Source: Bernardetia sp. MNP-M8 (lineage in GTDB: Bacteria > Bacteroidota > Bacteroidia > Cytophagales > Bernardetiaceae). Taken from it: a stretch of 64,000 nt of DNA. The DNA lies in the NCBI RefSeq assembly GCF_037126285.1, contig NZ_CP147012.1, positions 3,244,676 through 3,308,675 on the forward strand, read 5' to 3'. The position numbers and the translations under genes were made by a program. The notes under the pieces were generated by a model that saw only the letters and a program-made list of their open reading frames with translations, made no database searches and was not told the DNA's origin. This document shows positions 3,075 to 41,171 of the stretch, one piece after another; position 1 is the stretch's first letter; each line of letters begins with the position of its first letter.

Positions 3075-5489
3075 ATGTCTAATTTATCTGAAAAGGAATT
3101 AAAAAATGCTATCGAAAATTGTGCAAAAGAGCCTATACATCGTTTGGGTTCAATACAACCTCATGGTTTTTTGATTGTATTTTCAGAAGAAATGACAGTA
3201 TTAGGAGTAAGTCAAAATCTAATACAAGAAACAAATTATAGTTTTGAAGACCTTATAAATAATTCTTTTTCTAAATTATTGGGAGAAAGACAAACTCTTT
3301 TTATCCAAAAAAAGATAAAAGAGGTTAACCTACAACAAGAAACAGCTTATTACAAAACAATCAACCCGTTACGTCTTTTCTTAGAAATAGATACAGAAAA
3401 AAAGCCATTTGATGGAATTATTCACAAAAGTAATCAAGGATTTATATTAGAATTAGAATCAATAGATACAGAAAAAACAGAACTTATAAGAGATAATTTT
3501 TATCAAATCAATAAAAAATCTATTATTCGTTTTCAACATTCCAATACGCTTACAGAGCTATATAAAGTAATTGTAGAGGAAGTAAGAAATATTACAGATT
3601 TTGATAGGGTAATGCTTTACAAATTTAATGAAGAATATGATGGACAAATTGTAGCCGAAATAAAAAGAGAGGAAATGAATCCTTATTATGATTTATGGTT
3701 TCCTTCTACCGATATTCCTCAGCAAGCAAGAGAATTATATCTCAAAAATTGGCTGCGTTTGATTGTAGATACAGATTATAAACCCTCTCCTATTTTATTA
3801 GCTGATTCTCTACAAAATGATTATTTAGATTTGAGTTTTTCCACGCTTCGAAGTGTTTCTCCTGTGCATATCGAATATCTCAAAAATATGGGAGTGGGTT
3901 CTTCTATGTCTATTTCTATTGTTATCGATAATAAACTGTGGGGACTTATCTCGTGCCATCACAACTCTGCTAAAAGAGTAGATTATTCTACTCGTATGAC
4001 ATCTGAGTTTTTTGGTCAGCTCGTTTCACTACAAATTGACAGATTACAAAAAAATGCCATTCAATATGATAGATTAGAAAAAAGAATTTTATCAGAAGGT
4101 ATTATCGAATCGCTCAATGAAGAGAGAAATATCTATGCAGGAATGATAAAGAAAGGAAATTCTTTTCTTAGGCTCTTGGAAGCTGATGGTTTTGCTGTTG
4201 TCAATCTTATTGAAAGTACTAGAAAAATAAAAAAAATAGGAATCACACCAACTGATGAACAAATTTGGGAAATTACGGATTGGTTAGATAAGGAATATGA
4301 AAATGAATTGTTTTTTTCCTCTTGCATTACTGATGATATTTCAAGCATTAATATAGATACGACTATCTGTTCAGGATTACTCAGTATTCCCATTTCAAAA
4401 GAAGATAATAGCCGTATAATTTGGTTTAGAAAAGAATTACAACAGAGTATCAGTTGGGGAGGAAAGCCTGAAAAGGCTATTTTCAAAAACGGAGATGAGT
4501 TTGTACTTAAACCTAGAAATTCGTTTGCTAAATGGAATCAGAGTGTAGAATGTCATTCAAAACAATGGAATTTGACAGAAATAGATGTTGTTCAAAGTAT
4601 TCAAGCTAAAATTTTCTATCTTGTTACTCAAAATATGAATGAATATAGAGAAGAACTAAGAAGGAAAGAGTTGGAACAACAAGTACAGATTCGTACAGAA
4701 GAACTCACAACAACAAATGAAAAATTAATTCAGGAAGTGAGTCAAAGAGAAAAAATAGCTTTTCAACTTAATGCTGGAATGCGACAACTAGAGCTAACTA
4801 ACAAAGAGTTAGAACACTTTGCTTATGTAGCTTCTCATGATTTACAAGAACCATTGAGAGCAATTGCTAGTTTTAGCCAACTTTTAGAAAAACGCTATAA
4901 AGGGCAGTTAGATGAAAAAGCTGATATGTATATTGGTTTTATTATTGAAGGCTCAAATCGGATGAAAAGTCTTATTATGGATTTGCTGCTTTACTCAAGA
5001 TTGCATCGCAACGAAACTCCTCATAAAGAAGTAAATTTGCAGCAAATTTATCAAAATGCACTCAAAAACCTGACTCTTAGAATAGAAGAAACAGAAGCTA
5101 AAATAGAATTGCAAGATGAATTACCTACCACAAATTTAATGGGTAATGAAACAAAGCTAACTCAACTTTTTCAAAATTTAATAGGAAATGCAATTAAATA
5201 TCGCTCTGAAAAAACTCCTCATATAAAATTATCTTATACAGAAACAGAAAAGTATTTTGAATTTACTATCTCAGATAATGGAATCGGAATTGATTCAAGG
5301 TTTGCTGAGAGAATCTTTGTTTTGTTTCAACGTTTGCACACAAAAGAACAATATGAAGGAACAGGAATCGGACTTGCGCTTTGTCAAAAAATTGTAGAAC
5401 AGCATAACGGAAAAATTTGGCTAAATACTCAAAAAAGTAAATTTGGAGAAGGAACAACCATCCATTTTACATTAAAAAAATCAAATTAA
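3075..5489 (+). CDS. bphP: Bacteriophytochrome histidine kinase (PAS-GAF-PHY + HisKA/HATPase)
   Basis: N-terminal 'ENCAKEPIHRLGSIQPHGFL' matches the biliverdin-binding Cys and IQPHG motif of DrBphP-like proteins. H-box 'SHDLQEPLR'. C-terminal HATPase G-boxes 'DNGIGI' and 'GTGIGL'. Confidence 0.9.
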   Translation: MSNLSEKELKNAIENCAKEPIHRLGSIQPHGFLIVFSEEMTVLGVSQNLIQETNYSFEDLINNSFSKLLGERQTLFIQKKIKEVNLQQETAYYKTINPLRLFLEIDTEKKPFDGIIHKSNQGFILELESIDTEKTELIRDNFYQINKKSIIRFQHSNTLTELYKVIVEEVRNITDFDRVMLYKFNEEYDGQIVAEIKREEMNPYYDLWFPSTDIPQQARELYLKNWLRLIVDTDYKPSPILLADSLQNDYLDLSFSTLRSVSPVHIEYLKNMGVGSSMSISIVIDNKLWGLISCHHNSAKRVDYSTRMTSEFFGQLVSLQIDRLQKNAIQYDRLEKRILSEGIIESLNEERNIYAGMIKKGNSFLRLLEADGFAVVNLIESTRKIKKIGITPTDEQIWEITDWLDKEYENELFFSSCITDDISSINIDTTICSGLLSIPISKEDNSRIIWFRKELQQSISWGGKPEKAIFKNGDEFVLKPRNSFAKWNQSVECHSKQWNLTEIDVVQSIQAKIFYLVTQNMNEYREELRRKELEQQVQIRTEELTTTNEKLIQEVSQREKIAFQLNAGMRQLELTNKELEHFAYVASHDLQEPLRAIASFSQLLEKRYKGQLDEKADMYIGFIIEGSNRMKSLIMDLLLYSRLHRNETPHKEVNLQQIYQNALKNLTLRIEETEAKIELQDELPTTNLMGNETKLTQLFQNLIGNAIKYRSEKTPHIKLSYTETEKYFEFTISDNGIGIDSRFAERIFVLFQRLHTKEQYEGTGIGLALCQKIVEQHNGKIWLNTQKSKFGEGTTIHFTLKKSN

Positions 5490-5620
5490 TTAATGGCTTA
5501 AAATAAATAGCACTTAGTTGATATAAAATAAAAATAAACAAAGATAGATGATTCGTTGTTTATCTAAATATAACTAACTAATCAAATAAACACTTACTTA
5601 CAAACAAAGTAAAAATAATT

Positions 5621-6049
5621 ATGAAACCCATCAAAATTCTTTTAGTAGAAGACAATCTTGCTGATACCGTATTGATTCAGGAAAGCTTGCTTGAAAGTAA
5701 ACTTAATCTTGATATTGATGCTGTTATTGATGGCGAAAAAGCAATGGAATATCTGTACGAAAGGCTAGAAAATGGCTGTGAAAGACTACCAGATTTAGTT
5801 ATCTTGGATTTGAATATGCCTCGTAAAGATGGAAGAGAAGTATTAAAGGAAATCAAAGAACATGAGGAGCTTTGTCTCATACCTGTTGTGATTATGACTA
5901 CTTCTGAAAATGAAGAAGATGTAAAATTTGCATATAAAAATCATGCAAATAGTTATATTAGTAAGCCTGTTGAAATGGATGAATTTACCAAAATTGTTTC
6001 TTCTATAAATAATTTTTGGCTGACCATAGTAAAACTGCCTAACTCATAG
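5621..6049 (+). CDS. Single-domain response regulator (CheY/Rcp-like receiver)
   Basis: 'ILLVEDN', 'LDLNMP', 'KPV' receiver motifs in a 142-aa protein. Typical phytochrome-associated response regulator. Confidence 0.85.
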   Translation: MKPIKILLVEDNLADTVLIQESLLESKLNLDIDAVIDGEKAMEYLYERLENGCERLPDLVILDLNMPRKDGREVLKEIKEHEELCLIPVVIMTTSENEEDVKFAYKNHANSYISKPVEMDEFTKIVSSINNFWLTIVKLPNS

Positions 6050-6105
6050 ACTAGAACAAAAACACAAAAAGTGACCTTTAATTTTGAGCAATAACCTTTT
6101 ACATC

Positions 6106-7242
6106 ATGAATCGAACTTTGAATAGAATACATATTTTATTGATAGAAGATAATATAGCTGATCAGTTTCTCATGCAAGAAATACTAGAGAAGACTACATT
6201 CCCTGTCAAAAATCTAATTACAGCAGGCACTCTTACTGAGGGTTTAAAAGAATTGAATACAAAAAAAGTAGATTTAGTATTCTTAGATTTGTCATTGCCT
6301 GATAGTCATGGATTAGAAACATGTAAAACAATTACAGATAATTATTATGGAACACCTGTTATTGTTTTGACAGGATTAAATGATGTTCATGTAGGTTTAG
6401 AAGCTATTTCTTTAGGAGCTGCTGATTATATTGTCAAAGGAACATTGGATGAGTTTGGCATGGAAAGAGCGATTCTGTATGCTTTACAACGCAATGAAGC
6501 TCAAAAACAAATGACCAAAACAATGGACATGCTCAGAGGATATAATCAAAAACTAGAACAGTTTGCTCATATTATTTCTCATGACCTTATGTCACCAATT
6601 ATTTCTATAAAGGCATCTATTCAACTGTATGAATTAGAAAAAAAACACAATGATTTGACCCAAACTGCCGAAGAGGTAATGGACGAGGTATATAAAGGAG
6701 TTGACAAATTACACCTTAAATTAAAATCACTTGTCAAAACTCTTGTCGAACAGCAAACTTCGGGTTCTAAATTTGATACAATAGAATTATCTAGTTTTAC
6801 TAGAAAGGTAATTCAAGATATGCGAGAGATTTACAATCAACCCGATATTGACATTGAAGTAGATTTAACAGACGAACAAACTATTTCTTTTGTTCCTGAC
6901 TTAATGTATAGTATTATGCAAAACCTCCTTTCAAATGCTATAAAATATCGCTCTCCGAAACGTACTCCCAAAATAAAAATATGGGCAGAATCTCAAGAAG
7001 AATATTATTGCTTAAATGTAGAAGATAACGGAATAGGAATCGACATGGAAGCCAATAAAAACCGTCTATTTGGTATGTTTCAACGTTTGCACGAAGATAA
7101 TACTGAAATAGAAGGAAGAGGAATCGGATTACATTTAGTTAGAAATATCGTATACAGTAATGGTGGAAAAATAGATGTAAAAAGTACAGTTGATGAAGGA
7201 ACTACTTTTATTGTTTGTTTGCCTAGAGAGCCAAAATTTTAA
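6106..7242 (+). CDS. Hybrid response-regulator receiver + histidine kinase (REC-HisKA-HATPase)
   Basis: N-terminal receiver ('ILLIEDN', 'LDLSLPD'), H-box 'SHDLMSPI', C-terminal 'DNGIGI...GRGIGL'. Confidence 0.85.
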   Translation: MNRTLNRIHILLIEDNIADQFLMQEILEKTTFPVKNLITAGTLTEGLKELNTKKVDLVFLDLSLPDSHGLETCKTITDNYYGTPVIVLTGLNDVHVGLEAISLGAADYIVKGTLDEFGMERAILYALQRNEAQKQMTKTMDMLRGYNQKLEQFAHIISHDLMSPIISIKASIQLYELEKKHNDLTQTAEEVMDEVYKGVDKLHLKLKSLVKTLVEQQTSGSKFDTIELSSFTRKVIQDMREIYNQPDIDIEVDLTDEQTISFVPDLMYSIMQNLLSNAIKYRSPKRTPKIKIWAESQEEYYCLNVEDNGIGIDMEANKNRLFGMFQRLHEDNTEIEGRGIGLHLVRNIVYSNGGKIDVKSTVDEGTTFIVCLPREPKF

Positions 7243-7685
7243 TCTTCTTCAAAAAATTTCTTATAAACAGGACTTCTATAGGCAAATTGCGCCCACATTC
7301 CAGGATAAATTATTGTATCTAAAATTTTAGATGAAGTATAATAATCTATATCATCGATAATTATACACGAATTCTCATCTACTTTTCTTATTCTGTGGTG
7401 ATGTTTCCATTTTTTGAGAGGAAAGGGCAAATCTTTTTCGGCTGTATCTATAAAATAAATTTCACTTTCTGTTTCAGCTTGTTCAACAATATAGGAAGTC
7501 CATTTTGAGCTATAAATTCCAAAATCTAATTCTAGATGTACTTCATCGCCTACCTTACAGCCATCAAAACGATTGAGTTTGAGCTTCGGAAAAGGAGGAC
7601 TAAGTTTTAAAAATAGTTTTTCTGTAAAGCCATTCCATACCTCTTTGGCAGAACGGTTGATTGGAGTTTCAATGGTTAGTTTCAT
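7239..7685 (-). CDS. SRPBCC (START/Bet v1-like, polyketide-cyclase-fold) family protein
   Basis: 148 aa. Pattern resembles COG4276-type ligand-binding SRPBCC proteins. Convergent 4-nt overlap with the upstream kinase. Confidence 0.45.
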   Translation of the reverse strand: MKLTIETPINRSAKEVWNGFTEKLFLKLSPPFPKLKLNRFDGCKVGDEVHLELDFGIYSSKWTSYIVEQAETESEIYFIDTAEKDLPFPLKKWKHHHRIRKVDENSCIIIDDIDYYTSSKILDTIIYPGMWAQFAYRSPVYKKFFEED

Positions 7686-7840
7686 AATCTATAAAATCAA
7701 ATTGTGAAGGAAAATGTTTTGTTATCTTTGTAAACTTAAATTCTTTCTCGGTCTGACCTTCGGCACTGACCTACATCATAAATAAAAAGATATTTTGCAT
7801 TCATTCACAATTTATCATTCATAATTCACCATTCAAAAAA

Positions 7841-8947
7841 ATGCTTTTCTCTGATATTTTAGGTTTAGATCAACTCAAAAAAACGCTTACTTCTGCTGTT
7901 CATAATAATCATGTGGCACATGCACAGCTTTTTTTAGGTTATGAAGGAAGTGCAGGTCTTTCTCTTGCTTGGGCGTATGCTACTTTTTTAAATTGTGAAA
8001 ACAAACAAGAAAATGATGCTTGTGGAAAGTGTAGTTCGTGCATTCGCTACAAAAAGCTAATTCACCCAGATTTACATTTTGTTTTTCCGACAGCAAAAGC
8101 AAAAGCCTACAAGGAGAGAGAGGAGTTTATGAAAGGTTGGCGAGAATTTTTACCAAAACATAAATACCCAGTTTTGCAAGATTGGTCTGATTATTTGGAA
8201 ACAGATGGCAAGCAGTTTAGTATTTCGGTGGCAGAAAGTCGTTATATTTCAAAAATTTTATCTCTGAAAGCGTATGAAGGAGGTTACAAGATTTTGATTT
8301 TGTGGTTGCCTGAATATATGAATGCGAGTGCAGCAAACGCACTTTTGAAAGGGTTAGAAGAACCTCCAAAAAATACTATCTTTCTTTTGGTAGCCGAAAA
8401 AACTGATAAAATATTAGCTACTATTCTTTCTCGTTGTCAGCTTATTCAAGTTCCTCGTTATTCTGACCAAGAAGTCAAGGAATATTTGATAAGTCAGAAT
8501 ATAAAGGAAGAAGAAGCTGGAGAAATTGCGCCTTTAGTAGATGGAAACTTGAATGAAGCCATGAAACTAAGTGAGCATTCGCAAAACAAAAATCAAGAGC
8601 TTTTTAGAGATTGGATGCGCCTTTGTTTCAAACACGATTATGCAGGTTTTGTAAATCAAGCTGATGTATTTCATAGCCTAGGAAAAGAAGGTCAAAAAAC
8701 ACTTTTAATGTATGCTCTGACTATTTTGAGAGAATCTTTGATTTCTAATTTTGGCACAGAACAGCTTATCCGTACCGAATCTGAAACACTAAAATTTGTA
8801 CAGAATTTTGCTAAAGTTATCGATGAAAGAAATATTTTTTCGTTGGTAGAAAAGATAGATGAAGCCTATTTTCACTTAGAAAGAAATGCAAATTCTAAAA
8901 TTATTTTTATGGATTTGTCGGTACAGATTGCTAGATTATTGAGATAA
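7841..8947 (+). CDS. holB: DNA polymerase III delta' subunit
   Basis: 'HAQLFLGYEGSAGL' degenerate Walker region, 'CGKCSSCIRYKKLIHPDLHFV' zinc-module/box typical of HolB, 'ILWLPEYMNASAANALLKGLEEPP' sensor motif. Confidence 0.8.
   Translation: MLFSDILGLDQLKKTLTSAVHNNHVAHAQLFLGYEGSAGLSLAWAYATFLNCENKQENDACGKCSSCIRYKKLIHPDLHFVFPTAKAKAYKEREEFMKGWREFLPKHKYPVLQDWSDYLETDGKQFSISVAESRYISKILSLKAYEGGYKILILWLPEYMNASAANALLKGLEEPPKNTIFLLVAEKTDKILATILSRCQLIQVPRYSDQEVKEYLISQNIKEEEAGEIAPLVDGNLNEAMKLSEHSQNKNQELFRDWMRLCFKHDYAGFVNQADVFHSLGKEGQKTLLMYALTILRESLISNFGTEQLIRTESETLKFVQNFAKVIDERNIFSLVEKIDEAYFHLERNANSKIIFMDLSVQIARLLR
8897..8947 (+). repeat. Copy A of the ~50-bp holB 3'-end direct repeat. It encodes ...KIIFMDLSVQIARLLR* and is the functional holB end.
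   Basis: aaaattatttttatggatttgtcggtacagattgctagattattgagataa. Near-identical copy at 11927..11978 and a degenerate copy at 9478..9517. Confidence 0.8.
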
Positions 8948-8971
8948 AAAAACTTCTAAACTATTTATACA

Positions 8972-9448
8972 ATGAGAAAAACAGTTGTATTTGCTATTCT
9001 ATTTTTGATTTTTTCTTTTACTACTATTTCTTCAAACTCAATTATAGACAATAAAGATGATTTTTCTATTGAAGTTGAAGAAAGCGCAATGCTCATTCAC
9101 AATAATTACAAAATCTCACAAGATTGTATTAATATAAGATTACAAACACCACCTATAAAAGATGTATCCTATTCAAAAGTAGTTTCTAAAACTGATAGAA
9201 AAATAATTACTGATTTATTAGATAAAATAGAATTTGACGAACTTCGGAAAAGCTATTCCTATTATGCCATTGATGATATGGTAGAATATGATTTCACAGT
9301 CAATTACAAAGGAAAGAGTAAATCAATTCACATATACGATGTCAAAGTAAAACCTATTTTTGATTTGGTAGCAAAAATAAATACACTCTTGCCAAAAGAA
9401 TATGCTATTGGTTATGATGAAGCCTACCTTTCTTTATCTAAAAGATAA
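8972..9448 (+). CDS. Hypothetical secreted protein (signal peptide), cargo of the holB-adjacent insertion
   Basis: ORF with hydrophobic N-terminus MRKTVVFAILFLIFSFTTISS. No recognisable domain. Confidence 0.45.
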   Translation: MRKTVVFAILFLIFSFTTISSNSIIDNKDDFSIEVEESAMLIHNNYKISQDCINIRLQTPPIKDVSYSKVVSKTDRKIITDLLDKIEFDELRKSYSYYAIDDMVEYDFTVNYKGKSKSIHIYDVKVKPIFDLVAKINTLLPKEYAIGYDEAYLSLSKR

Positions 9449-9477
9449 TAATACCAAAATGAAAACTAAACTACACC

Positions 9478-9517
9478 TAAATTTTTATCGATACAGATTG
9501 CCAGAGTTTTGAGATAA
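9478..9517 (+). repeat. Copy B, a degenerate internally deleted copy of the holB 3'-end repeat
   Basis: aaatttttatcgatacagattgccagagttttgagataa aligns to copy A with an ~8-nt deletion. Confidence 0.6.
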
Positions 9518-9608
9518 CTTTTTAATATTTCTATATAGGTCAGCCTCGTAGAGCAGACCGTTTATAGTCTGTTCAAATAATAATCTAGTCTTTTTTCGTT
9601 CTTTAGTT

Positions 9609-10559
9609 ATGAAATATCTACAAAACCCTTATTTGCCTACGGCTATTCTGTTGTTTCTACTCGCTTTTTTGGGGTACAAGACTTTTTTTGATGAACGTTA
9701 TACTCAAACTGAAAAAGAAATTTTTGGTTATAATTATCATCAAAATATAGGCTTGAAGGAAGAATATACTGAATTAGCAACAAGAGCGTGGCATAGTGTG
9801 GGAAGGCATTTTGAAGAACATGGAGTTGAAGAAAACGATTACATAAAAAAGATAGATGCTCGTTTCAAAAAACAAAGAGATGAACTTCAAAAAATTTATC
9901 AAGAAACTCATAATACCTATTTTGAAGAGCCAAGATTTGAGTTAGTCAAAGAAAAAGTAAAATCAAATCCCAAATATACAGAAGAGCGTACCGTCGTCGA
10001 ATTTCCTAATCTGAAAGTCGTTACAGCTTTCAATGAATATGTCCAAAAAGTATCAGCTTTAGATTCCTCGCTTTCGAAGCGTTATCAAGATTTTGTGTTT
10101 GAAGAGGGAATGAACAACAAAGAATTAGACGATTTTTATTTTGATACAGACGATTATTTGAGAGCCTTTCATTATTCTCGTTTTGAGGCACAACTTGCCA
10201 CTATGTATTACGAAGATGCAAAACTACTTTCAAGAAAATATTTTCTCTTTCCTCTTGATTTGAAAGCAGAAGATATAAAAGTTGTGCCTTATGTGCATTA
10301 CAAAAAAGAAAAAGACAAACCATATTATATTATTACAATGAGTGTTGTTCCTTTCGATAAAGAGAATACTCGTCTCGTTTACCCAGAAAATGTAGAAACC
10401 AAATTTGATGAAAATGGATTTATCATTGTCCCAAAAGAATTTAGAAAAGGAATACAGAAATTTCAAGTACAAATTCCAACGCTTCTTCAAAGTGATACTT
10501 CTTTTGTTATCGTACAAGATTTTGACTACCTAAATAAATATTATAAAGATGAAGAGTAA
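9609..10559 (+). CDS. Hypothetical N-terminally membrane-anchored protein (paralog group member 1)
   Basis: N-terminal TM. Followed by two paralogs with overlapping start/stop codons. Confidence 0.5.
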   Translation: MKYLQNPYLPTAILLFLLAFLGYKTFFDERYTQTEKEIFGYNYHQNIGLKEEYTELATRAWHSVGRHFEEHGVEENDYIKKIDARFKKQRDELQKIYQETHNTYFEEPRFELVKEKVKSNPKYTEERTVVEFPNLKVVTAFNEYVQKVSALDSSLSKRYQDFVFEEGMNNKELDDFYFDTDDYLRAFHYSRFEAQLATMYYEDAKLLSRKYFLFPLDLKAEDIKVVPYVHYKKEKDKPYYIITMSVVPFDKENTRLVYPENVETKFDENGFIIVPKEFRKGIQKFQVQIPTLLQSDTSFVIVQDFDYLNKYYKDEE

Positions 10560-11133
10560 AACTGTATTTTCTGTTTCGCTTTGGTTCTTGATTGCTTTCT
10601 TAGGGGGGTATTATTTCGTTTCTCAAAAGAGTAATAAAGAAAACGAAGTTTTTGCAGTAGAAAAAAGTAGTCAAGTCTTGAAAAAGTCGATAAAACAGGC
10701 TCATAAAGACAGATATTTGACACTTTTGTATCACGTAGGAGCTACTATTGCTTATAGTAAAAGAGAACAATACACATTTCGCAACATAGAAAATGCTCAT
10801 AAACTGGCAGAAATCAGATACGAAAAAGGTACTATTTCTCTAGATGATATGGAAAAATATCCTCTAACCAAAAATGAGTTTTCTAATAAAATTATTTCTC
10901 AAAATGATTTTAATTATTGCTCATCTAAGGAAAATAAATTTGTACAAAAATTACACAAACTTTATTTGTACAAAGACTTGATGAATTTTGTAGATGATGA
11001 AACCTACCCAAACATATCTTATTGGGGAACAGGATATAGAAGGTTTGATATTAAAATTATAGAAAACGATAAAATAGCTATTAGATTGACAGATATTTTT
11101 CATCCAGAACCTATTGAATACTATTTAAAATGA
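10549..11133 (+). CDS. Hypothetical N-terminally membrane-anchored protein (paralog 2, MKSKTVFSVSLWFLIAFL...)
   Basis: The start overlaps the upstream stop by 11 nt. Its N-terminus is paralogous to the 11130 ORF. Confidence 0.5.
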   Translation: MKSKTVFSVSLWFLIAFLGGYYFVSQKSNKENEVFAVEKSSQVLKKSIKQAHKDRYLTLLYHVGATIAYSKREQYTFRNIENAHKLAEIRYEKGTISLDDMEKYPLTKNEFSNKIISQNDFNYCSSKENKFVQKLHKLYLYKDLMNFVDDETYPNISYWGTGYRRFDIKIIENDKIAIRLTDIFHPEPIEYYLK

Positions 11134-11876
11134 AAACTAAAACTATATTTTCTTTTTCTCTTTGGAGTTTGATAGGGATTTTTTGTTGTTCATACTTTTT
11201 TTTGGAAGAAAGGCAAGAAGAGAGAAATATCAAATCACTTGAAATCAGTAGTAGATTTTTGATAGAGAAAAGCAAGACAATTTTTTTAGAAGAATTACAA
11301 GAAGGAGAAACTCAAATGGCAGAAAGTGGCTATCACCCAAAAGATGTCAGTTTATATAGTTCATTGAGGAAGAATTATGAACTTTCGGATTCTTTGTACA
11401 AAACCGACAATTATAAATGGACTGTATTGAAAGAATATTTGAGAGATAGCTCTTATCAGAATATTATTTCTACCAAAAGTACAGAGTTATTAAATTATGG
11501 AAATCCTAACTCTTCATTACTTCAAAAATTTCATACAATGACTTTGTACAGGATACACAATCAAGCTGAAATAAGAGAATTTAGCCGAGTGAGTGGTAAC
11601 TGGGTTTCTTTTGATAAATTTTCGCTCAACCTTATTGCTTTAAATCCAAAGATATTTTTGTATTACTCTGATAATCCTAAGTTGTTTTCTTACCAACTCT
11701 ACCAAAACAATCAACCCATAGAAAATCTATATTTTGATATAGAAAAAGACACGACATTTCATTTTCAAATCCGAACAGATTATTACACAAATGATATATT
11801 CAAAAACACTAAAAACTACAAACTCAATATAAAAGCTGGGCAACGAAATGATTTTGAAATTGAGGAAGTATTTTGA
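11130..11876 (+). CDS. Hypothetical N-terminally membrane-anchored protein (paralog 3, MKTKTIFSFSLWSLIGIF...)
   Basis: ATGA start/stop overlap with the upstream gene. Shared N-terminal motif MK(S/T)KT(V/I)FS(V/F)SLW. Confidence 0.5.
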   Translation: MKTKTIFSFSLWSLIGIFCCSYFFLEERQEERNIKSLEISSRFLIEKSKTIFLEELQEGETQMAESGYHPKDVSLYSSLRKNYELSDSLYKTDNYKWTVLKEYLRDSSYQNIISTKSTELLNYGNPNSSLLQKFHTMTLYRIHNQAEIREFSRVSGNWVSFDKFSLNLIALNPKIFLYYSDNPKLFSYQLYQNNQPIENLYFDIEKDTTFHFQIRTDYYTNDIFKNTKNYKLNIKAGQRNDFEIEEVF

Positions 11877-11926
11877 TTTATACAAGGCAGGTATTTAAAC
11901 TATTTCCAAAATTACTTTGGGTTACC

Positions 11927-11978
11927 AAAAATTATTTTTATGGATTTATCGGCACAGATTGCTAGGCTTTTGAGGTAA
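11927..11978 (+). repeat. Copy C of the holB 3'-end repeat. It would encode KIIFMDLSAQIARLLR* and is probably the displaced ancestral holB end.
   Basis: aaaattatttttatggatttatcggcacagattgctaggcttttgaggtaa. About 43 of 51 nt identical to copy A. Confidence 0.8.
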
Positions 11979-12198
11979 GGACAAAATAAATATAAAGTAA
12001 CATAGACTTCAAATGTAAAAAATCTTGTCAATCGATACAAAGTTAGCTTTGGTCTAAAATAGAGTAGTATAATAACTATTTTTATCCTATTTTTGACTTT
12101 AAGGCAAAACTATTGCAGTTATTTAACTCTTATAGTTTTCAAAATTCTTAAAGATTTCAAGACAAATACACAAATTAAAAAACTCATCTTTCCTTTCT

Positions 12199-14202
12199 AT
12201 GTTCAAATTTCTCAATCATGTTTCTATAAAGACAAAAGTAGTCGGTTCGATTATGATAGCGACTATTATTGCTTTGATAATTGCCTTTTCGGCTTTTATT
12301 ATCTATGACTTGATTGATTACAGAACCGAATTAGAAACAGGTTTGCGTGATAGAGCGCAGATTATTTCTAGGGATGCTTATCTTCCAGTTAGTTTTGCAG
12401 ATCCTAAAAATACAGAAGACCAGTTAAAAGATTTATTTGCTTCTGATCCTAATATTTTGGCTGCACAAGTATATGATACACTTGGCAGACCCTTTGCAAA
12501 ATATGAGCGTTTGGGAATGAAAGTAAATCCTGCTTATAAAAAACCTCCTTATGAAAATTCTGACTTTGATTTACTAAATAATCAAATGTCAATTTATCAT
12601 CGTAGAGAAGTAGATTTAGCTAATTTTGATAAAGATAATACAACAGGACTTTCGATAGATAATCGTCCTCCAACTTATCCAACCGTTTATCTTTTATCTA
12701 ATCTTGACCGTTTTTATGATCGTATGCAACGTTATGCGCTCATTACGGGGCTTATTTTGCTTACCGTTTCTCTTCTTACTTATTTTATAGCTATTCGTTT
12801 ACAAAGATTAGTTTCGAAACCGATTTTGGAACTGACAGCACAAACAAAACAAATTGCTCAAGAAAAAGTCTATTCTACACGAATTAGTAGAGGAGAAAGA
12901 AGGGACGAAATCGGAACACTGACAGAAAGTTTTGATGATATGCTTGCACAAATTGAACAGCAAAACTTAGCTTTAGTTTTGGCAAAAGAACAAGCCGAAC
13001 AATCTGCAAAAGCAAAAGAACAGTTTTTGGCAAATATGAGTCATGAAATTAGAACACCTATGAATGGCGTTTACGGAATGTCAGAGCTTTTATTGGATAC
13101 TTCTCTAAATAATGTTCAGTTGAAGTATGTCAATGCCATTAAATCTTCTGCTGACCATCTTTTAGTTATTATCAATGATATTTTAGATTTATCAAAGATT
13201 GAATCTGGAAAAATATCTTTTGAAGAAAGTCCAATTGATTTTTATCCAATTGTAGAAAATATGATAAGTAGCATCAAAGTAAAAGCTGATACTAAAAAGG
13301 TTACTTTAAGAAGCAAAATAAGTCCAGATATTCCTGCTCGTTTTGTGGGCGATGAAGTGCGTTTAAGACAAGTTTTGCTTAACCTCCTAGGAAATGCTGT
13401 AAAATTCACACACAAAGGAGAAATAGTAATTGGTGCTAATTTGGTAGATGAAGATAAAAATTTTGTAACACTTCATTTTTATGTAAGTGATACAGGAATA
13501 GGGATTTCAGAAGAAAAGATAGATGATATTTTTACAATGTTTACGCAAGCAAGTAGCGATACCACACGAAAATATGGTGGAACAGGTCTAGGTCTTGCAA
13601 TATGTAAACAATTGGTAGAACTTCAAGGAGGAGAGATTTATGCAAAAAGTAAAGTAGGACAAGGTTCTACATTTGCTTTTCAACTTCGCTACAAAAAATA
13701 TACAGAAGTAAGTCAGCCTATGGTACAGCGAGATAGAACAAATCAAATTCCTGATTTTCTGCGTAATGCAATCAACTCTGAAAATCTTATCCAAAAAGAG
13801 AATATAGACAGTACAAGTATTGCAGCTCCCAAACCAATTACAAATAAGATTTTATTAGCAGAAGATAATGAAATCAATCAGCTTTTAGTAGTAACAATGC
13901 TTAAAAACTGGAACTATGAAATTGAAGTGGCTTTCAATGGAAAAGAAGCCGTCGAAAAGCTACAAAAAGAAGAGTTTAATTTGGTCTTAATGGATGTTCA
14001 TATGCCTGAAATGGATGGTTACCAAGCTACCAAAATAATCAGAGAAACTATTTCAAAAGATTTGACTATTATCGCCATGACTGCTTCTGCACTAAAAGGA
14101 GAAGCCGAAAAATGTATTGCAGCAGGAATGAATGATTATATTGCCAAACCATTTAATAAAGAAGCCTTCAAGCAAAAACTTGCTAGTTATTTGAGAAAGT
14201 AA
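12199..14202 (+). CDS. Hybrid sensor histidine kinase (TM sensor, HAMP, HisKA, HATPase, C-terminal receiver)
   Basis: H-box '[10 protein letters not shown]', 'GNAVKFT', 'DTGIGI', 'GGTGLGLAI', then receiver '[11 protein letters not shown]...[11 protein letters not shown]...KP'. Confidence 0.85.
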
Positions 14203-14420
14203 AGTAAAAACCTAGAAATAACAATTATTTTTTGAGAATCGGCTAATTCTATACATATTTTACGTCTCATTTTTGATGTTTAACATAGTGAAAAAAAACT
14301 TAAATACCTTTATACTTCTCTCTTTGTTAGTACAAACAAGTATAATTTTTGCGATATTTAGAGTTAGATTCAATTTTATATATTTGAATTAGAATTAATA
14401 AAAAAGACAAAAATCCAATT

Positions 14421-15695
14421 ATGAAAAAAAAACTTATTCTATCTCTATTCTTTCTGTTTTTTATAAGTGTTTCAAATTTTGCTAAAGCTAATCAGATAAT
14501 GATTGCGATGGACGAAACACAGAAAAATCATTTAAAAGCCTACGGAATTGCATTTGCTGTTCTTAAACAAGATATGACTGTCGAATGGCTTCTAAACTAT
14601 CGTGGTGGTAGTTTTATGTTTGATTATTCTCGTCCTTTTGAAGAAGAAATGCGCCTTCGTGGAGTGAGTTTTGAAATTATCTCAGAAGCTCAAGCAACTC
14701 AAGTTCGCAGTCAGATTGCAAAGGCTGATGTTAATATGGACATTGTAAAACTGGAAGTTGCTCCAAAAATTGCTGTTTATTCTCCAAAATCCAAACAGCC
14801 TTGGGATGATGCTGTAACGCTTGTTCTGACTTATGCAGAAATTCCTTATGATGTCGTTTTTGATGATGAAATTATGCAAGACAAACTCCCTGAATATGAT
14901 TGGTTACATTTGCATCACGAAGATTTTACAGGACAATATGGAAAATTTTATGCTAGTTATTCAGGTCAAAAATGGTATCAAGACCAACAAAGAGAATATG
15001 AAGAAGTAGCCAAAAAATATGGTTTTGCTAAAGTTTCAGAGCTTAAATTAGCTGTTGTAAAGAAGATTCAAGGATATTGCTTAGGTGGTGGATTTATGTT
15101 TGCCATGTGTTCGGCAACAGATACATACGATATTGCGCTTGCAGCTGAAGGAATTGATATTTGTGATAGAGTTTATGACGGTGACCCTGCCGATCCAGCA
15201 GCCAATAAAAAATTGAAGTTTGAGAATACATTTGCTTTCAAAGATTTCAAATTAGTCTTGAATCCTTTTGAATATGAGTATTCTAGTATTGATAATAGTT
15301 ATCGTCAGCGCACAGGAATCACAGAAAAGAATGATTATTTTGAGCTTTTTCAGTTTTCTGCCAAATGGGATCCAATTCCGACTATGCTTACTCAAAACCA
15401 CGTTACGAAAGTAAAAGGTTTTATGGGACAAACGACAGCTTTTAGAAAAGAGTTAGTAAAATCTGATGTTGTGATTTTGGGAGAATTCAAGACAGTAAAT
15501 GAAGTTCGTTATATTCATGGAACAATGGGAAAAGGAACATGGACTTTTTATGGGGGACACGACCCAGAAGATTATCAACATTATGTAGGAGAAGCTCCAA
15601 CAGACTTAAACCTACACCCACAATCCCCTGGATATAGACTAATTTTGAATAATATTTTATTTCCTGCTGCAAAGAAAAAGAAGAGAAAAACGTAA
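14421..15695 (+). CDS. Conserved hypothetical secreted protein (signal peptide, Lys-rich C-terminal tail)
   Basis: 424-aa ORF with an N-terminal signal peptide. No motif I can assign with confidence. Confidence 0.5.
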   Translation: MKKKLILSLFFLFFISVSNFAKANQIMIAMDETQKNHLKAYGIAFAVLKQDMTVEWLLNYRGGSFMFDYSRPFEEEMRLRGVSFEIISEAQATQVRSQIAKADVNMDIVKLEVAPKIAVYSPKSKQPWDDAVTLVLTYAEIPYDVVFDDEIMQDKLPEYDWLHLHHEDFTGQYGKFYASYSGQKWYQDQQREYEEVAKKYGFAKVSELKLAVVKKIQGYCLGGGFMFAMCSATDTYDIALAAEGIDICDRVYDGDPADPAANKKLKFENTFAFKDFKLVLNPFEYEYSSIDNSYRQRTGITEKNDYFELFQFSAKWDPIPTMLTQNHVTKVKGFMGQTTAFRKELVKSDVVILGEFKTVNEVRYIHGTMGKGTWTFYGGHDPEDYQHYVGEAPTDLNLHPQSPGYRLILNNILFPAAKKKKRKT

Positions 15696-15817
15696 GCAAA
15701 TTTAGAAGGTAGATTTTAGAAGTTAGAATTAAATGAATTTTTACTTTTAGAGTTTACGTTTTGTATTTCTAATTTTACTTCTGAATTCTAATTTCTAAAA
15801 TCTAACTTTGTTCTCCT

Positions 15818-16270
15818 ATGTTATTCGAAAAACAGCTTGCTGAACTTGAGTCTTATATTCCACAACTAGAAAAAACAAACCCAAAAGTCACACATTCAAA
15901 TGTAGGTTGGCAGGTTGACCATGCACTGCGTGTTATTCGTGGAGTAGCTAAACAGCTAGAAGACTCTAACCCAAGTGAGTTTAAAAGTAAATTTAGTTTT
16001 CCTAAGTTTTTTGTAATGCTAACAAAGCATATTCCTAGAGGAAAGGCAAGAGTTCCCAAATCTGTCCGAAATGAAAATCCAATTACAGAAGAATCAATTA
16101 GAGAATTTTTAGAAAAAACGAAATTGCAGGTTGATAAGATAGAAGATTTGAATAAAAACACTTATTTTCCTCATCCTATTTTTGGACACATGAATAAAAA
16201 AGAAGCAATTCGTTTTATAGGAATTCATACTGAACATCATTTGAAAATTATTCGTGATATGCTTCAATAA
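15818..16270 (+). CDS. DinB/YfiT-like (DinB_2/DUF1569 four-helix-bundle) family protein
   Basis: 150 aa with C-terminal 'HTEHHLKII' His-cluster typical of the DinB_2 superfamily. Confidence 0.5.
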   Translation: MLFEKQLAELESYIPQLEKTNPKVTHSNVGWQVDHALRVIRGVAKQLEDSNPSEFKSKFSFPKFFVMLTKHIPRGKARVPKSVRNENPITEESIREFLEKTKLQVDKIEDLNKNTYFPHPIFGHMNKKEAIRFIGIHTEHHLKIIRDMLQ

Positions 16271-25777: not shown

Positions 25778-25854
25778 CCAAAAACTAATTAAAAATTTTG
25801 AAAAGTGGTTTGAATATTATTTATAAATTATCATTTTTAAACTTATTTTTTATT

Positions 25855-26025
25855 ATGAAGTCTTTGAAAAAGAAATTTGGAAAATTTGTGGTTTCTGAAA
25901 AAGAAATCCAAAAACTGAAAGGTGGTTTTAATTACTGTAATTGTGATCATTATCATAATTGTCCAAGAGGAGCAGCAAATTATATCGAACAACCAACAGG
26001 TTGTCAAGCTGTATGTTGTGGCTAA
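25855..26025 (+). CDS. Double-glycine-leader Cys-rich precursor peptide 1, MKSLKKKFGKFVVSEKEIQKLKGG|FNYCNCDHYHNCPRGAANYIEQPTGCQAVCCG
   Basis: Leader paralogous to two downstream peptides. The GG motif precedes a 6-Cys core. The internal ATG was chosen over the ORF-track start 25798 by paralog alignment. Confidence 0.65.
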   Translation: MKSLKKKFGKFVVSEKEIQKLKGGFNYCNCDHYHNCPRGAANYIEQPTGCQAVCCG

Positions 26026-26061
26026 AATGAGCTCAATATAGTTCAGTTTTGTGTATACAAT

Positions 26062-26092
26062 CACGTCTTACAAAATCTTGTAAGACGTGGTT
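26062..26092 (+). terminator. Terminator hairpin after peptide 1
   Basis: cacgtcttacaa aatc ttgtaagacgtg, a perfect 12-bp stem, followed by ttattt. A second hairpin, aaaaaaggcgtttt ataa aacgccttttttt, lies at 26148..26186. Confidence 0.65.
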
Positions 26093-26204
26093 ATTTAAAG
26101 ATGATTTAAAATTGGCTCTTTATCTGAAACACAATACCACTTCTAGCTAGACAAAAAAGGCGTTTTATAAACGCCTTTTTTTGTCAAAGGTTATTTCAAA
26201 AAAA

Positions 26205-26310
26205 TCAATCAAGCTCAAATTTCAAGTAATATTATATTACTTTTTGCATACTATAAAGTAGAGTCTTTAGCTATTTAGATTAAAAAGAAAGAATTATCAT
26301 AAATTATAAC
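26205..26310 (+). pseudogene. Remnant of the 5' part of a second C39-like/VKOR gene, homologous to 27160..27260
   Basis: About 100 nt at ~75% identity to the region encoding DAQTLSDLTTLLAHYKIESLAVQIGKEH of the 27083 gene. The reading frame is interrupted by a stop. Confidence 0.55.
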
Positions 26311-26562
26311 CTTTGAAAAATAGCAATATGTTGGGTTTTAATTACAACATCAAATACTTTGTGTTTTGAAAAAATAACATTTTGTAATTTACTGTTATTC
26401 AGAAAGTTATATCTTTTTTGAAAATAAATGTAATTTTTATTTGGAAATATGATTTATTTTTATTGATATTTACAGCGTCAAACTTACTTAGTAAGTATTA
26501 GAAATATATAAGTAAGTAATCTTGATAAATTATTTTAATTATACCTATTAAACTCAATTTTT

Positions 26563-26715
26563 ATGAAATCTTTGAAAAAGAAATTTGGAAAATTTGCTAT
26601 CTCTCAAGAAAAAGCAAATAAAGTAAACGGTGGTGAGCCACCATATCCGTGTAAGAATAAGTATTTTCCTAATCCAAATGATCCTTTTGAGTGTGATCCA
26701 CTTAGAGGAAATTAA
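26563..26715 (+). CDS. Double-glycine-leader precursor peptide 2, MKSLKKKFGKFAISQEKANKVNGG|EPPYPCKNKYFPNPNDPFECDPLRGN
   Basis: 50-aa ORF below the ORF-track cut-off. The leader and 5' flank are nearly identical to peptide 3. 2-Cys Pro-rich core. Confidence 0.6.
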   Translation: MKSLKKKFGKFAISQEKANKVNGGEPPYPCKNKYFPNPNDPFECDPLRGN

Positions 26716-26779
26716 ATTCATTTATTATTGATTCATTTTGTATCAATATTTTTTAATAAAACATCTGAACTCAATTTTT

Positions 26780-26965
26780 ATGAAATCTTTGAAAAAGAAA
26801 TTTGGAAAATTTGCTATCTCTCAAAAACAGAGCAAACAAATTACAGGGGGTTTTGATAATTGTGAAGTAGTTTTTTGGTGTCAAGGTAAAACGTATCCTA
26901 CAAAATCACAATGTGAGTCAGGGTGTGATGATTTTTGCTATGGACAATATGTATTTCCGTGCTAG
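26780..26965 (+). CDS. Double-glycine-leader Cys-rich precursor peptide 3, MKSLKKKFGKFAISQKQSKQITGG|FDNCEVVFWCQGKTYPTKSQCESGCDDFCYGQYVFPC
   Basis: Paralogous leader. 6-Cys core. Own terminator at 26987..27038 (atagcgatagaa...ttctatcgctat + T-run). Confidence 0.65.
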   Translation: MKSLKKKFGKFAISQKQSKQITGGFDNCEVVFWCQGKTYPTKSQCESGCDDFCYGQYVFPC

Positions 26966-27082
26966 TATAAGTAATTAATATAAAAAATAGCGATAGAATA
27001 AACTTTGGTATTGCCAAACTTCTATCGCTATCTTTTTTGTAGTTTTGCAAGCAAAAAAAACAATATTTAAAGCAATTGTAAT

Positions 27083-28741
27083 ATGAAAACTATTGTAAGT
27101 ATCCTATTAGATAAATTTGAAGTTTCTTACACTATCACTTATTTACAAAAACTGACAGCAAAATATAATGATGCTCAAACATTAAGTGATCTTACTACAC
27201 TTTTAGCACACTATAAAATAGAGTCTTTAGCTGTTCAGATTGGAAAAGAACATTTATCAGAAATTCCTTTGCCTGCTATTGTTTTGGCTTCTCATAATGA
27301 TGAAAATGGAAGAACACACACTGATTATTCTATTTTAGACGAAGTTAGAGACAATGAAGTAGTCTTGATTAATGTGAATTCAGAGAAACAGATAGTTGAA
27401 ATAGAAGAATTTGAAAAATCATGGACAGGTTATACACTGTTATTAGATAAAAATGAAAATGCAGCAGAACCAAATTACTCTGCTCATAAAAAAGCACAAA
27501 AGAAACAACAGTTTTTTGACACTATAAAAAATACCATTCAATTTTTAGTGGGTATTTCTTTTTTATTTTTAGTTGGAAAAACTTTTTTTGACACGAATCA
27601 ACAAGTCACAAAGTCTATTCTTGAAATTTCCTTTTATATTTTACATACTATAGGATTTGTAATTAGTGCTATCTTACTTTCTGGAGAAATTTTTAAAAAT
27701 AATGCAGTTTTCAAAAAAGCTTGTACTGCCTTCGGAAAATCATCTTCATGTGCTGATACAAAACAAGAAAATACAAGTAAAATAGATTCAATCAAAAAAT
27801 GGTTTACCTTTTCAGAATTGGGTGTTTATTATTTCTTTGGGGCATTTTTATTTTTACTGATTGGTAATTTTAATTCTTTAACATTCGTTTTTCAGAGTTT
27901 GATTTCTGTTTTGGGGATTTTTGCAGTCATTGCATCTTTATATTATCAAAAGTTTATTCTTAAAGAATGGTGTTCGCTTTGTGTTTCTATAATGGCAGTT
28001 TTGTTTGTAGAATCTTTGGTAGGGGGAGTATATTTATTTAGCTTTCAAGATGAAATTTCATCTTTTACTTTTACTTTGTATTCTGTTTTTTCAATTTTAG
28101 TAATAGCTGTTTTTTCATTCCTGTTGCCTATATTTATTTGGAATATTTTAAAACCAGTTCTTGAAAAATATAACTCTTCTAATAACGAAACTAAGAATCT
28201 ACGTTCTTTTAAGTATGATTATGAGGTTTTCAAAACACTTCTTCATCAAAATAAAAAAGTAGATATAAGCGAAGTTCCAACCCATTTTGTAGAAGGAAAT
28301 ACTATTTCAGCCGAACTAGAGGAAGAAGAAGAGGAGAATAAAGTTTCTTTAGTTGTCATTAGTCGCCCTACTTGTCCACCTTGTATTAGTGCAAAGAAAG
28401 ATTTACAAAAATTGAGAGAAGATTTTGGCAATTATTTTACTACAACTATGTGCCATTTGACTCCCAATCAAACAAGTGAAGATTACAAGCAGATTTCAGA
28501 AATGTTATCCCATCTTCCGACATTTTATTCTGATAAAGAAAAAGAAAGTATCATTTCACAACATTATACTTGGATAAATCAGACAGGAATTACTTTTACA
28601 CCTGCTTTTATTGTAAATGGGTATTTATTACCAGAAAAATATACAGTTACTGATTTAGAGTATTTTTTAGTGCATTTGGCTAGTGAAATGGATGATTCAG
28701 AAGAAAATCCAGAAGAAGAACTATCTTTGCAAGAAAACTAA
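27083..28741 (+). CDS. Fusion protein with an N-terminal peptidase-C39-like domain lacking the catalytic Cys, a VKOR-like 5-TM core (loop Cys pair CTAFGKSSSC, TM 'CSLC') and a C-terminal thioredoxin-like domain ('TCPPC')
   Basis: 'IPLPAIVLASHND' and 'EEFEKSWTGYTLLLD' match the C39 C-terminal half but no Cys occurs in the first ~140 aa. Multi-TM middle with CxxC. 'VVISRPTCPPCISAKK' Trx motif. Confidence 0.7.
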   Translation: MKTIVSILLDKFEVSYTITYLQKLTAKYNDAQTLSDLTTLLAHYKIESLAVQIGKEHLSEIPLPAIVLASHNDENGRTHTDYSILDEVRDNEVVLINVNSEKQIVEIEEFEKSWTGYTLLLDKNENAAEPNYSAHKKAQKKQQFFDTIKNTIQFLVGISFLFLVGKTFFDTNQQVTKSILEISFYILHTIGFVISAILLSGEIFKNNAVFKKACTAFGKSSSCADTKQENTSKIDSIKKWFTFSELGVYYFFGAFLFLLIGNFNSLTFVFQSLISVLGIFAVIASLYYQKFILKEWCSLCVSIMAVLFVESLVGGVYLFSFQDEISSFTFTLYSVFSILVIAVFSFLLPIFIWNILKPVLEKYNSSNNETKNLRSFKYDYEVFKTLLHQNKKVDISEVPTHFVEGNTISAELEEEEEENKVSLVVISRPTCPPCISAKKDLQKLREDFGNYFTTTMCHLTPNQTSEDYKQISEMLSHLPTFYSDKEKESIISQHYTWINQTGITFTPAFIVNGYLLPEKYTVTDLEYFLVHLASEMDDSEENPEEELSLQEN

Positions 28742-40949: not shown

Positions 40950-41171
40950 ATGGAAAATTTACAAAAAACAGTTTACTTTTCTACAAGAGAAGGACTTCAA
41001 GCAATAACTCATATAGATTATGCAATAGATGCAGTAACTAAAAAGCGTGATATTTTCATAGAAGAAAATACAGATAAAATAGCAAAGGTAATAGAAGAAA
41101 ATATTACTACAGAAATTTACAATAATACTATACTAATTATTATCCTTAAGTTATCTTATTATCCTAAATAA
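40950..41171 (+). CDS. Small hypothetical protein (73 aa), paralog A, ends ...KLSYYPK
   Basis: Shares N-terminal ME(N/K)L.KTVYF, central D.FIE.N.D.IAKVI and C-terminal KLSYYPK with the next ORF. Confidence 0.5.
   Translation: MENLQKTVYFSTREGLQAITHIDYAIDAVTKKRDIFIEENTDKIAKVIEENITTEIYNNTILIIILKLSYYPK

Follow-up and report, generated by a model that had tools for sequence, protein, structure and literature searches.

We analysed a 64,000-nucleotide stretch of the genome of Bernardetia sp. MNP-M8 (Bacteroidota; contig NZ_CP147012.1, positions 3,244,676 to 3,308,675), hereafter the window, in which small blocks of genes appear to have been inserted one behind another at the 3' end of holB, the gene for the delta' subunit of DNA polymerase III. 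In an alignment with 15 Cytophagales homologues the HolB protein is full length and ends in the conserved C-terminal motif ERNAN.KI.F.DLS.Q.A.. of this family. A repeat search of the window recovered a single three-member direct-repeat family, and this family is the holB 3' end itself: the live end of the gene (copy 1), a second copy between gene A and gene X, and a third copy beyond gene Z (Table 1). A degenerate 18-nt core, TCGRYACAGATTGCYAGR, occurs three times in the 64 kb, where 0.01 occurrences are expected, and each time it lies on the plus strand at one of these copies. A profile built from 11 copies of the repeat revealed no further copy in the window. An earlier, sequence-only reading of this DNA had pointed out the three copies and had taken them as the marks of insertions. 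Its coordinates prove to be off by 1-10 nt only, and the self-comparison that it proposed for the window places the repeat at these three sites and nowhere else; they are not a dispersed repeat unrelated to holB, the outcome under which that reading was to be abandoned.

The 33-nt core of the repeat is TYTRTCNNNNCARATTGCYAGRNTWTTGAGRTAR. Copy 3 is 88% identical to copy 1 (45/51; about 85% had been estimated from the sequence alone), while copy 2 is more diverged, with 71% identity over 51 nt and 28/33 matches over the core. When translated in the holB register, copy 3 reads KIIFMDLSAQIARLLR and copy 2 reads ..LSIQIARVLR, each followed by the stop codon, and in all three copies the similarity ends exactly at that stop. 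Over all copies considered here, the repeat measures 33-51 nt and pairwise identities range from 71 to 90%. Such an arrangement is peculiar to holB in the window: among 49 window genes it alone has its last 33 nt repeated in the following 6 kb, with 28/33 matches, and no other gene exceeds 23/33.

Table 1. Features of the holB locus and its array in the window.
Feature	Positions	Strand	Evidence or remark
148-aa gene next to holB, left flank, outside the array	7239..7685	-	Adjoins holB in every Bernardetia locus recovered; no Pfam family
holB, DNA polymerase III delta' subunit, target gene	7841..8947	+	Pfam PF13177 (DNA_pol3_delta2), 1.4e-43
Copy 1, live holB end, attL-like	8897-8947	+	Reference copy; encodes KIIFMDLSVQIARLLR and the stop
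Gene A, cargo of cassette 1, 158 aa, DUF6438-like	8972..9448	+	Weak Pfam match, PF20033
Copy 2, boundary of cassettes 1 and 2	9467-9517 (core 9485-9517)	+	Repeat search
Spacer before X, with truncated MITE-like palindrome at ~9538-9575	9518..9608	+	Kept after the repeat in L083 and L091
Gene X, cargo of cassette 2, 316 aa, N-terminal membrane helix, GldM/PorM-like fold	9609..10559	+	
Gene Y, cargo of cassette 2, 194 aa, N-terminal membrane helix	10549..11133	+	Missing from L084
Gene Z, cargo of cassette 2, 248 aa, N-terminal membrane helix	11130..11876	+	Duplicated in OM2101
Copy 3, displaced older holB end, attR-like, distal boundary of the array	11928-11978	+	Repeat search

Homologue look-ups with holB, X and A led to nine further Bernardetia holB loci. 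Among these relatives the holB 3' end is followed by zero to four blocks, across independent assemblies that include two complete genomes. Against three repeat copies in the window, the relatives have two to five per locus, and each unit boundary falls on a copy. Bernardetia sp. Wsw4-3y2 (CP147017, locus L092) matches the window in gene order and in its three copies, and aligns with window positions 5000-16000 in one piece at 96.5% identity. The locus of OM2101 (CP170094, L083) is the most extended, with five copies that bound four blocks: AraC and hydrolase genes, an Asp-protease gene, A', and X-Y-Z'-Z. Its copy 4 is identical to window copy 2 at 51/51 positions. Locus L091 has the hydrolase block followed by XYZ, with no A; L001 has XYZ without A; and L084 has X and Z, with neither A nor Y, and its live holB end occupies the position that copy 2 holds in the window. 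Three metagenome contigs (L093-L095) carry a 174-aa gene, A, a truncated repeat remnant TCTAGGAGATAG and the same right flank, and no XYZ. In L085 (Ga0210012_1000863), the one contig that a pattern scan of metagenomes yielded, the site is empty: the holB stop leads directly into the shared right flank, L085 11706-11811 matching L083 13400-13507 at 81%, the flank that follows the last OM2101 repeat. The live holB end of this empty-site locus and window copy 3 share 96% identity, which fits copy 3 being a displaced native holB end. The empty site foreseen by the sequence-only reading was thus recovered in L085, next to loci that lack A (L084, L091 and L001) or XYZ (L093), and its proposal that the insertion supplied a replacement gene end and displaced the old one gains support from these empty and partial sites and from the match of copy 3. 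As a negative control, we took 80 distant Bacteroidota holB loci, the matches listed for a holB alignment (among which there was no Bernardetia), and looked in each for a second copy of the locus's own holB end (at least 27/36); none was found (0/80).

The comparison also bears on the order of events. Window 8900-11227 aligns with L083 9296-11622 as a single block at 92% identity, so that the third copy of OM2101 (L083 9296-9343) is the counterpart of the live end in the window. It is thus a former live end, on whose holB side two blocks have since been gained; an in-frame CAG has become TAG, and the copy now lies in no gene. New blocks therefore enter at the position next to holB and push older blocks outward. 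With that polarity the window records two events, the XYZ block having arrived first (now 9518-11978) and the gene A block second (8948-9517), and the two successive insertions suggested from the sequence alone thus find support in the comparative loci. Blocks have also been gained or lost singly. L091 1-1754 matches L083 6474-8217 and L091 1721-3467 matches L083 9876-11622, and the homology between the two loci switches inside a 34-nt repeat core, at the point where the hydrolase block joins XYZ. Such a switch within the repeat indicates that blocks were independently inserted, or deleted, by recombination within the repeats. The right-hand copies of the hydrolase block in OM2101 and L091, which we compared to place the crossover within the repeat, are diverged and patchy.

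The displaced copies retain the imprint of a coding sequence. Most of them, read in register, still end in ..DLSVQIARLLR and the stop codon, and where they depart from live ends the changes are mainly synonymous when judged against simulated random substitutions: the ratio of synonymous to non-synonymous changes is 5:1 for window copy 3 against copy 1 (P=0.0006), 5:0 for OM2101 copy 5 against copy 1 (P<0.0002), 7:4 for OM2101 copy 2 against OM2101 copy 1 (P=0.002) and 4:1 for L091 copy 1 against L084 copy 1 (P=0.009). Each displaced copy therefore descends from a holB end that was under coding selection and is not an in-place duplicate that has drifted; this descent took place either in another lineage or in the copy's own lineage before its displacement. 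Some displaced copies contain in-frame stops or deletions, which shows that they are decaying. The limits of similarity are also constrained. On the 5' side they lie 45 to 55 nt before the stop in four events and 33 to 38 nt before it in two or three, and on the 3' side the limit is the stop codon in every copy.

The blocks themselves are small, with sizes of 0.55-3.5 kb across Bernardetia and one to five genes each, none of which encodes a recombinase. Searches of Pfam and NCBIfam with A, X, Y and Z from the window hit no family of recombinases or transposases, in line with the absence of an integrase in cis that had been noted from the sequence. The PF20033 match of gene A, at 9.6e-5, is under the family cut-off; its 11 homologues all lie on Bernardetia-type contigs, five of them with a precomputed PF20033 annotation, and its hydrophobic N-terminus, judged by eye, resembles a signal peptide. 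X has an N-terminal membrane helix followed by the helical D1 domain of the GldM fold, as expected of a GldM/PorM-like protein, and has 24 homologues. Every X or A homologue with a named source comes from Bernardetia, the remainder being mostly metagenome contigs. Y, which belongs to no Pfam or NCBIfam family, is paralogous to Z (BLASTP 1e-8). Every gene of the blocks runs in the direction of holB, the first gene begins 17-50 nt past the holB stop, and no terminator-like hairpin was found within 7600-12400; the block genes are thus probably read through from holB, as judged from this layout. Integron cassettes, for comparison, are expressed from the Pc promoter.

Two further features of the arrays may be recorded here. 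The spacer between a holB-end copy and X hosts palindromic elements resembling miniature inverted-repeat transposable elements (MITEs) in the window, in L096 and in L001: L096 1-70 holds a full palindrome, AGGTCAGCC...GGGACTGACCT, of which the window has a truncated version, and L001 11140-11310 holds a different palindrome at the same spacer position. In L084, the most distal segment of the array (12519-13141) encodes, on the opposite strand, a PemK-type toxin and, upstream of it, a small partner; what may be a remnant of the repeat, CTAGAATAG, follows this segment immediately ahead of the shared right flank.

We propose that the 3' end of Bernardetia holB serves as an attachment site at which small blocks would be inserted serially by recombination within its last ~33 nt. 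An incoming block would bring a holB-like end with it, a stretch of 33-51 nt that closes with the stop codon, and would thereby keep the essential gene intact, while the previous holB end would be stranded beyond the block and persist as a direct repeat without function. The simplest account of this exchange, and one that the loci strongly support, is that a circular block crosses over with the live end through the holB-end mimic that it carries, which yields a restored, attL-like end and a stranded, attR-like end. Because no block encodes a recombinase, we infer that the crossover would be made by a site-specific enzyme whose gene lies at another place in the genome or on a helper element. 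Serial insertion at the holB end by such a trans-acting recombinase is, on balance, what we consider probable.

A number of observations weigh against this proposal. The recombinase that it calls for is absent from all seven block types (Pfam, NCBIfam) and from ~39 other window proteins compared with Pfam. Viral contigs searched for the site with two degenerate patterns gave zero matches, and the 3.1-kb island has only chance AT-rich matches among plasmids and none among phages. The repeats have no obvious inverted-repeat core and no conserved arms beside them. The empty site in L085 rests on ~50 nt of flank homology in a locus that ends 178 nt past holB, and XYZ is not followed by a repeat in L001 or in L096. 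The 3' tips of copies from the same genome tend to agree, a pattern that could equally arise by gene conversion or homologous exchange. Finally, homologous recombination is clearly active at this locus. Most of window 7000-13000 is 97-100% identical to Wsw4-3y2; within it, a mosaic patch of ~550 bp (9050-9600) is 98-100% identical to OM2101 and 49-76% identical to Wsw4-3y2. The patch takes in the last two-thirds of gene A together with copy 2 and the spacer, with its left edge inside gene A and not at a repeat, and is a recent homologous import from another lineage. The window and OM2101 are 92% identical in the A-X-Y region and 87% identical in holB itself.

These last observations are what one would expect if RecA had done the work unaided, with the repeats looping out a circle made of one repeat plus cargo, the circle re-entering by a single crossover at a resident holB end, and whole arrays also being swapped by double crossovers in holB and the right flank. 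The visible patch, the closer likeness of A-X-Y than of holB between the window and OM2101, the 3' tips common to the copies of a genome and the failure to find a recombinase in the blocks or among the other window proteins all suit such a scheme. However, repeats of 33-51 nt at 71-90% identity are poor substrates for RecA, the patch does not start at a repeat, the origin of the first repeat is left unexplained, and so is the fact that at least five independent 5' limits fall within 20 nt of one another with the 3' limit always at the stop codon. We regard RecA-driven exchange as improbable as the source of the array, if still worth keeping in mind. The clustering of the limits also speaks against homology-facilitated illegitimate recombination, in which diverged donor DNA would have been anchored in holB and joined at its far end just before the recipient's stop, stranding the last few dozen bases. 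This too would need no recombinase, and it would leave live and stranded ends with the same synonymous type of divergence, but its joints would be expected anywhere along the 1.1-kb gene and in the intergenic DNA, whereas the starts of no fewer than five or six independent copies lie 33-55 nt ahead of the stop. Moreover, the donor would already need a block beside its holB, and the combinations hydrolase/XYZ and hydrolase/AspP/A/XYZ break exactly in the repeat. We consider this route very unlikely.

It would also be conceivable that nothing was inserted, and that the copies are remnants of tandem holB duplications or an RNA or regulatory element needed by each downstream gene. The copies do lie in the orientation and register of holB, as such explanations predict. 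However, the DNA between the copies contains nothing else derived from holB; both strands of the three copies fold no better than shuffled sequences (z -1.7 to +1.5), with no Rfam match for a known RNA element anywhere in 7000-13000. Some copies are decaying through in-frame stops and deletions, and the presence or absence of whole blocks together with the empty site demonstrates insertion or deletion. An origin without insertion is, in our judgement, close to untenable.

The surroundings of the array and other parts of the genomes furnished several additional observations. In the lineage of the window and Wsw4-3y2, both flanks of the segment made up of the 148-aa gene, holB and the array differ from those in all other Bernardetia loci (at window 7239 and 11979-12198). 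The left flank holds phytochrome and response-regulator genes where the others have TANGO2, and the right flank holds a hybrid histidine kinase where the others have genes from a 283-aa gene to GldN; on the right, the break follows copy 3 by no more than a few tens of nucleotides. OM2101 has a paralogous X-Z pair beside mutS (L087), bounded by a 69-nt direct repeat (93%) at 9914-9981 and 11684-11752. This repeat is a copy of the region just upstream of mutS, so that the same type of cargo lies at a different target, and the pair may mark a second attachment site used in the same way, to judge from its repeats. On the opposite strand the mutS-side repeat has TTTTGAGAT in common with the holB repeat, possibly by chance. 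No repeat of a neighbouring gene end was seen at the other paralogous XYZ clusters, after uvrC (L086, L090) or after the TerD array (L088).

Elsewhere in the window, a 42-nt repeat at 41148 and 41395 was considered as a further insertion scar and rejected: it is the shared C-terminus (..KLSYYPK and stop) of two tandem paralogous small genes. Immediately downstream of these paralogues come an OLD-family nuclease (AAA_15 and TOPRIM, 41421-43202) and an overlapping 140-aa open reading frame, and the segment 40952-43611 looks like a defence-type module. In 25817-28741, three small open reading frames have a common N-terminus MKSLKKKFGKF.. (an 86-nt repeat family) and stand beside a Peptidase_C39-VKOR fusion (27083-28741); by its composition this segment looks like a cluster of bacteriocin-type precursors and their processing enzyme.

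Among the papers listed by a full-text search of the literature, judged by titles and abstracts, there was no earlier description of holB as an attachment site. Within one genus, the loci form a natural series from the empty site through one and two blocks to four, which shows how an essential gene can act as an undamaged landing pad while the displaced ends decay. Since the blocks are recombinase-free, small and uniformly oriented, the locus is a good place to seek a trans-acting recombinase comparable to an integron integrase in the Bacteroidota, where such systems are poorly known, and the identity of that enzyme would raise the value of the finding. The 33-nt core is also a candidate safe-harbour insertion site for the engineering of Bernardetia.

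Among known systems, integrons and CALINs (clusters of attC sites lacking integron-integrases) come close in behaviour. Like these, the holB array consists of short, co-oriented, mostly single-gene blocks with a site after each, and addition occurs at the proximal end, where the extra blocks of OM2101 are found; one holB array (L084) also contains a toxin-antitoxin pair, and no recombinase lies inside the blocks. The defining features of integrons are nevertheless missing. The poor folding of both strands of the copies excludes attC structure, R''/R' GTTRRRY cores are absent, and no intI adjoins the array, whose neighbours are holB and the 148-aa protein without a Pfam family. The array is thus integron-like in behaviour, yet fails the tests that define an integron. 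One might go further and see in it an integron-like capture system at the stop-codon end of holB, in which blocks that never had a recombinase would carry the 33-51-nt holB-end mimic as their only site, a dedicated chromosomal recombinase would insert and excise them at the holB-proximal position, expression would be by read-through, and the X-Z block beside mutS in OM2101 would be a second or sister site. We put this forward as a tentative and rather unlikely extension.

Other identities were considered as well. Integrative mobile elements exploiting Xer (IMEX) use dif, a 28-bp site with two inverted 11-bp arms at the terminus; the holB repeat has no such two-arm inverted symmetry, and the cumulative GC skew climbs steadily over 5-16 kb with no switch, which argues against a dif or terminus location. 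A transposon with target-site duplication was rejected for the lack of a transposase and of shared block termini, and for copies that differ from one another as diverged alleles do, unlike duplicates that were identical at first and then decayed. A better parallel is the staphylococcal cassette chromosome (SCC), including pseudo-SCC elements without ccr, which inserts in the last codons of rlmH (orfX) and restores the reading frame. SCC elements form composite arrays bounded by gene-end repeats, and some cassettes lack a recombinase and are served in trans. The insertion into the end of a housekeeping gene is as in the holB array, although repeat length, cassette size, enzyme and phylum all differ: SCC has repeats of ~15-18 bp, larger cassettes and the known serine recombinases CcrAB and CcrC.

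Tandem islands bounded by repeats of the 3' end of their target gene, some of them without integration genes, have clear precedents (PMC3146451, PMC5704250). It is the tandem islands at ssrA, fda or rlmH whose recombinase is lost or lacking that resemble the holB array most. In the Tycheposon islands of Prochlorococcus, successive integrations push older elements deeper into the island, and partial copies of the target mark the events (bioRxiv 10.1101/2020.12.28.424599). They share with the holB array the outward displacement of older elements and the use of target-gene copies as event marks, but their targets are tRNA genes, active elements carry tyrosine recombinases and the islands contain fragmented integrases; no such fragment is seen in the Bernardetia array. 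Cis-mobilizable elements (CIMEs) accrete at the 3' end of fda in the ICESt1/ICESt3 family, with attL and attR sites that include the end of a protein-coding gene (PMC5704250). Like the Bernardetia blocks they lack integration and transfer genes and are stacked by later integrations at the same site, and the holB loci likewise have units bounded by repeats of the target 3' end, with an unoccupied site (L085, over ~50 nt) and differing unit contents in relatives. CIMEs, however, are described as decayed integrative and conjugative elements (ICEs) or integrative and mobilizable elements (IMEs), mobilised in cis by an adjoining intact element (PMC5704250), whereas the holB loci contain neither an intact element nor a recombinase pseudogene, and no integrase to go with the sites, whether in cis or on a partner element, turned up in the units, among ~39 other window proteins or in viral, plasmid or phage sequence.

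The ssrA islands of Dehalococcoides are tandem, vary in number between strains and are bounded by direct repeats of the ssrA 3' end; some lack integration genes and have been proposed to be cis-mobilizable (PMC3146451). Both they and the Bernardetia array consist of tandem units downstream of a single-copy essential gene, and in both, the last repeat is followed by syntenic older cargo that may have become fixed. In Dehalococcoides, however, the target is an RNA gene, the repeat measures 20 bp, the islands are ~10-30 kb long and a serine recombinase module (dsiB) is present in sixteen of them, whereas in Bernardetia the target is a protein-coding end, the repeat extends 33-51 nt to the stop, the blocks measure 0.55-3.5 kb and none of the seven types has a recombinase. 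All seven block types are so tiny that they leave no room for pseudogene remnants. Besides these tiny, recombinase-free blocks, what sets the Bernardetia array apart from the known tandem islands is its target, holB, together with a long repeat that ends at the stop codon.

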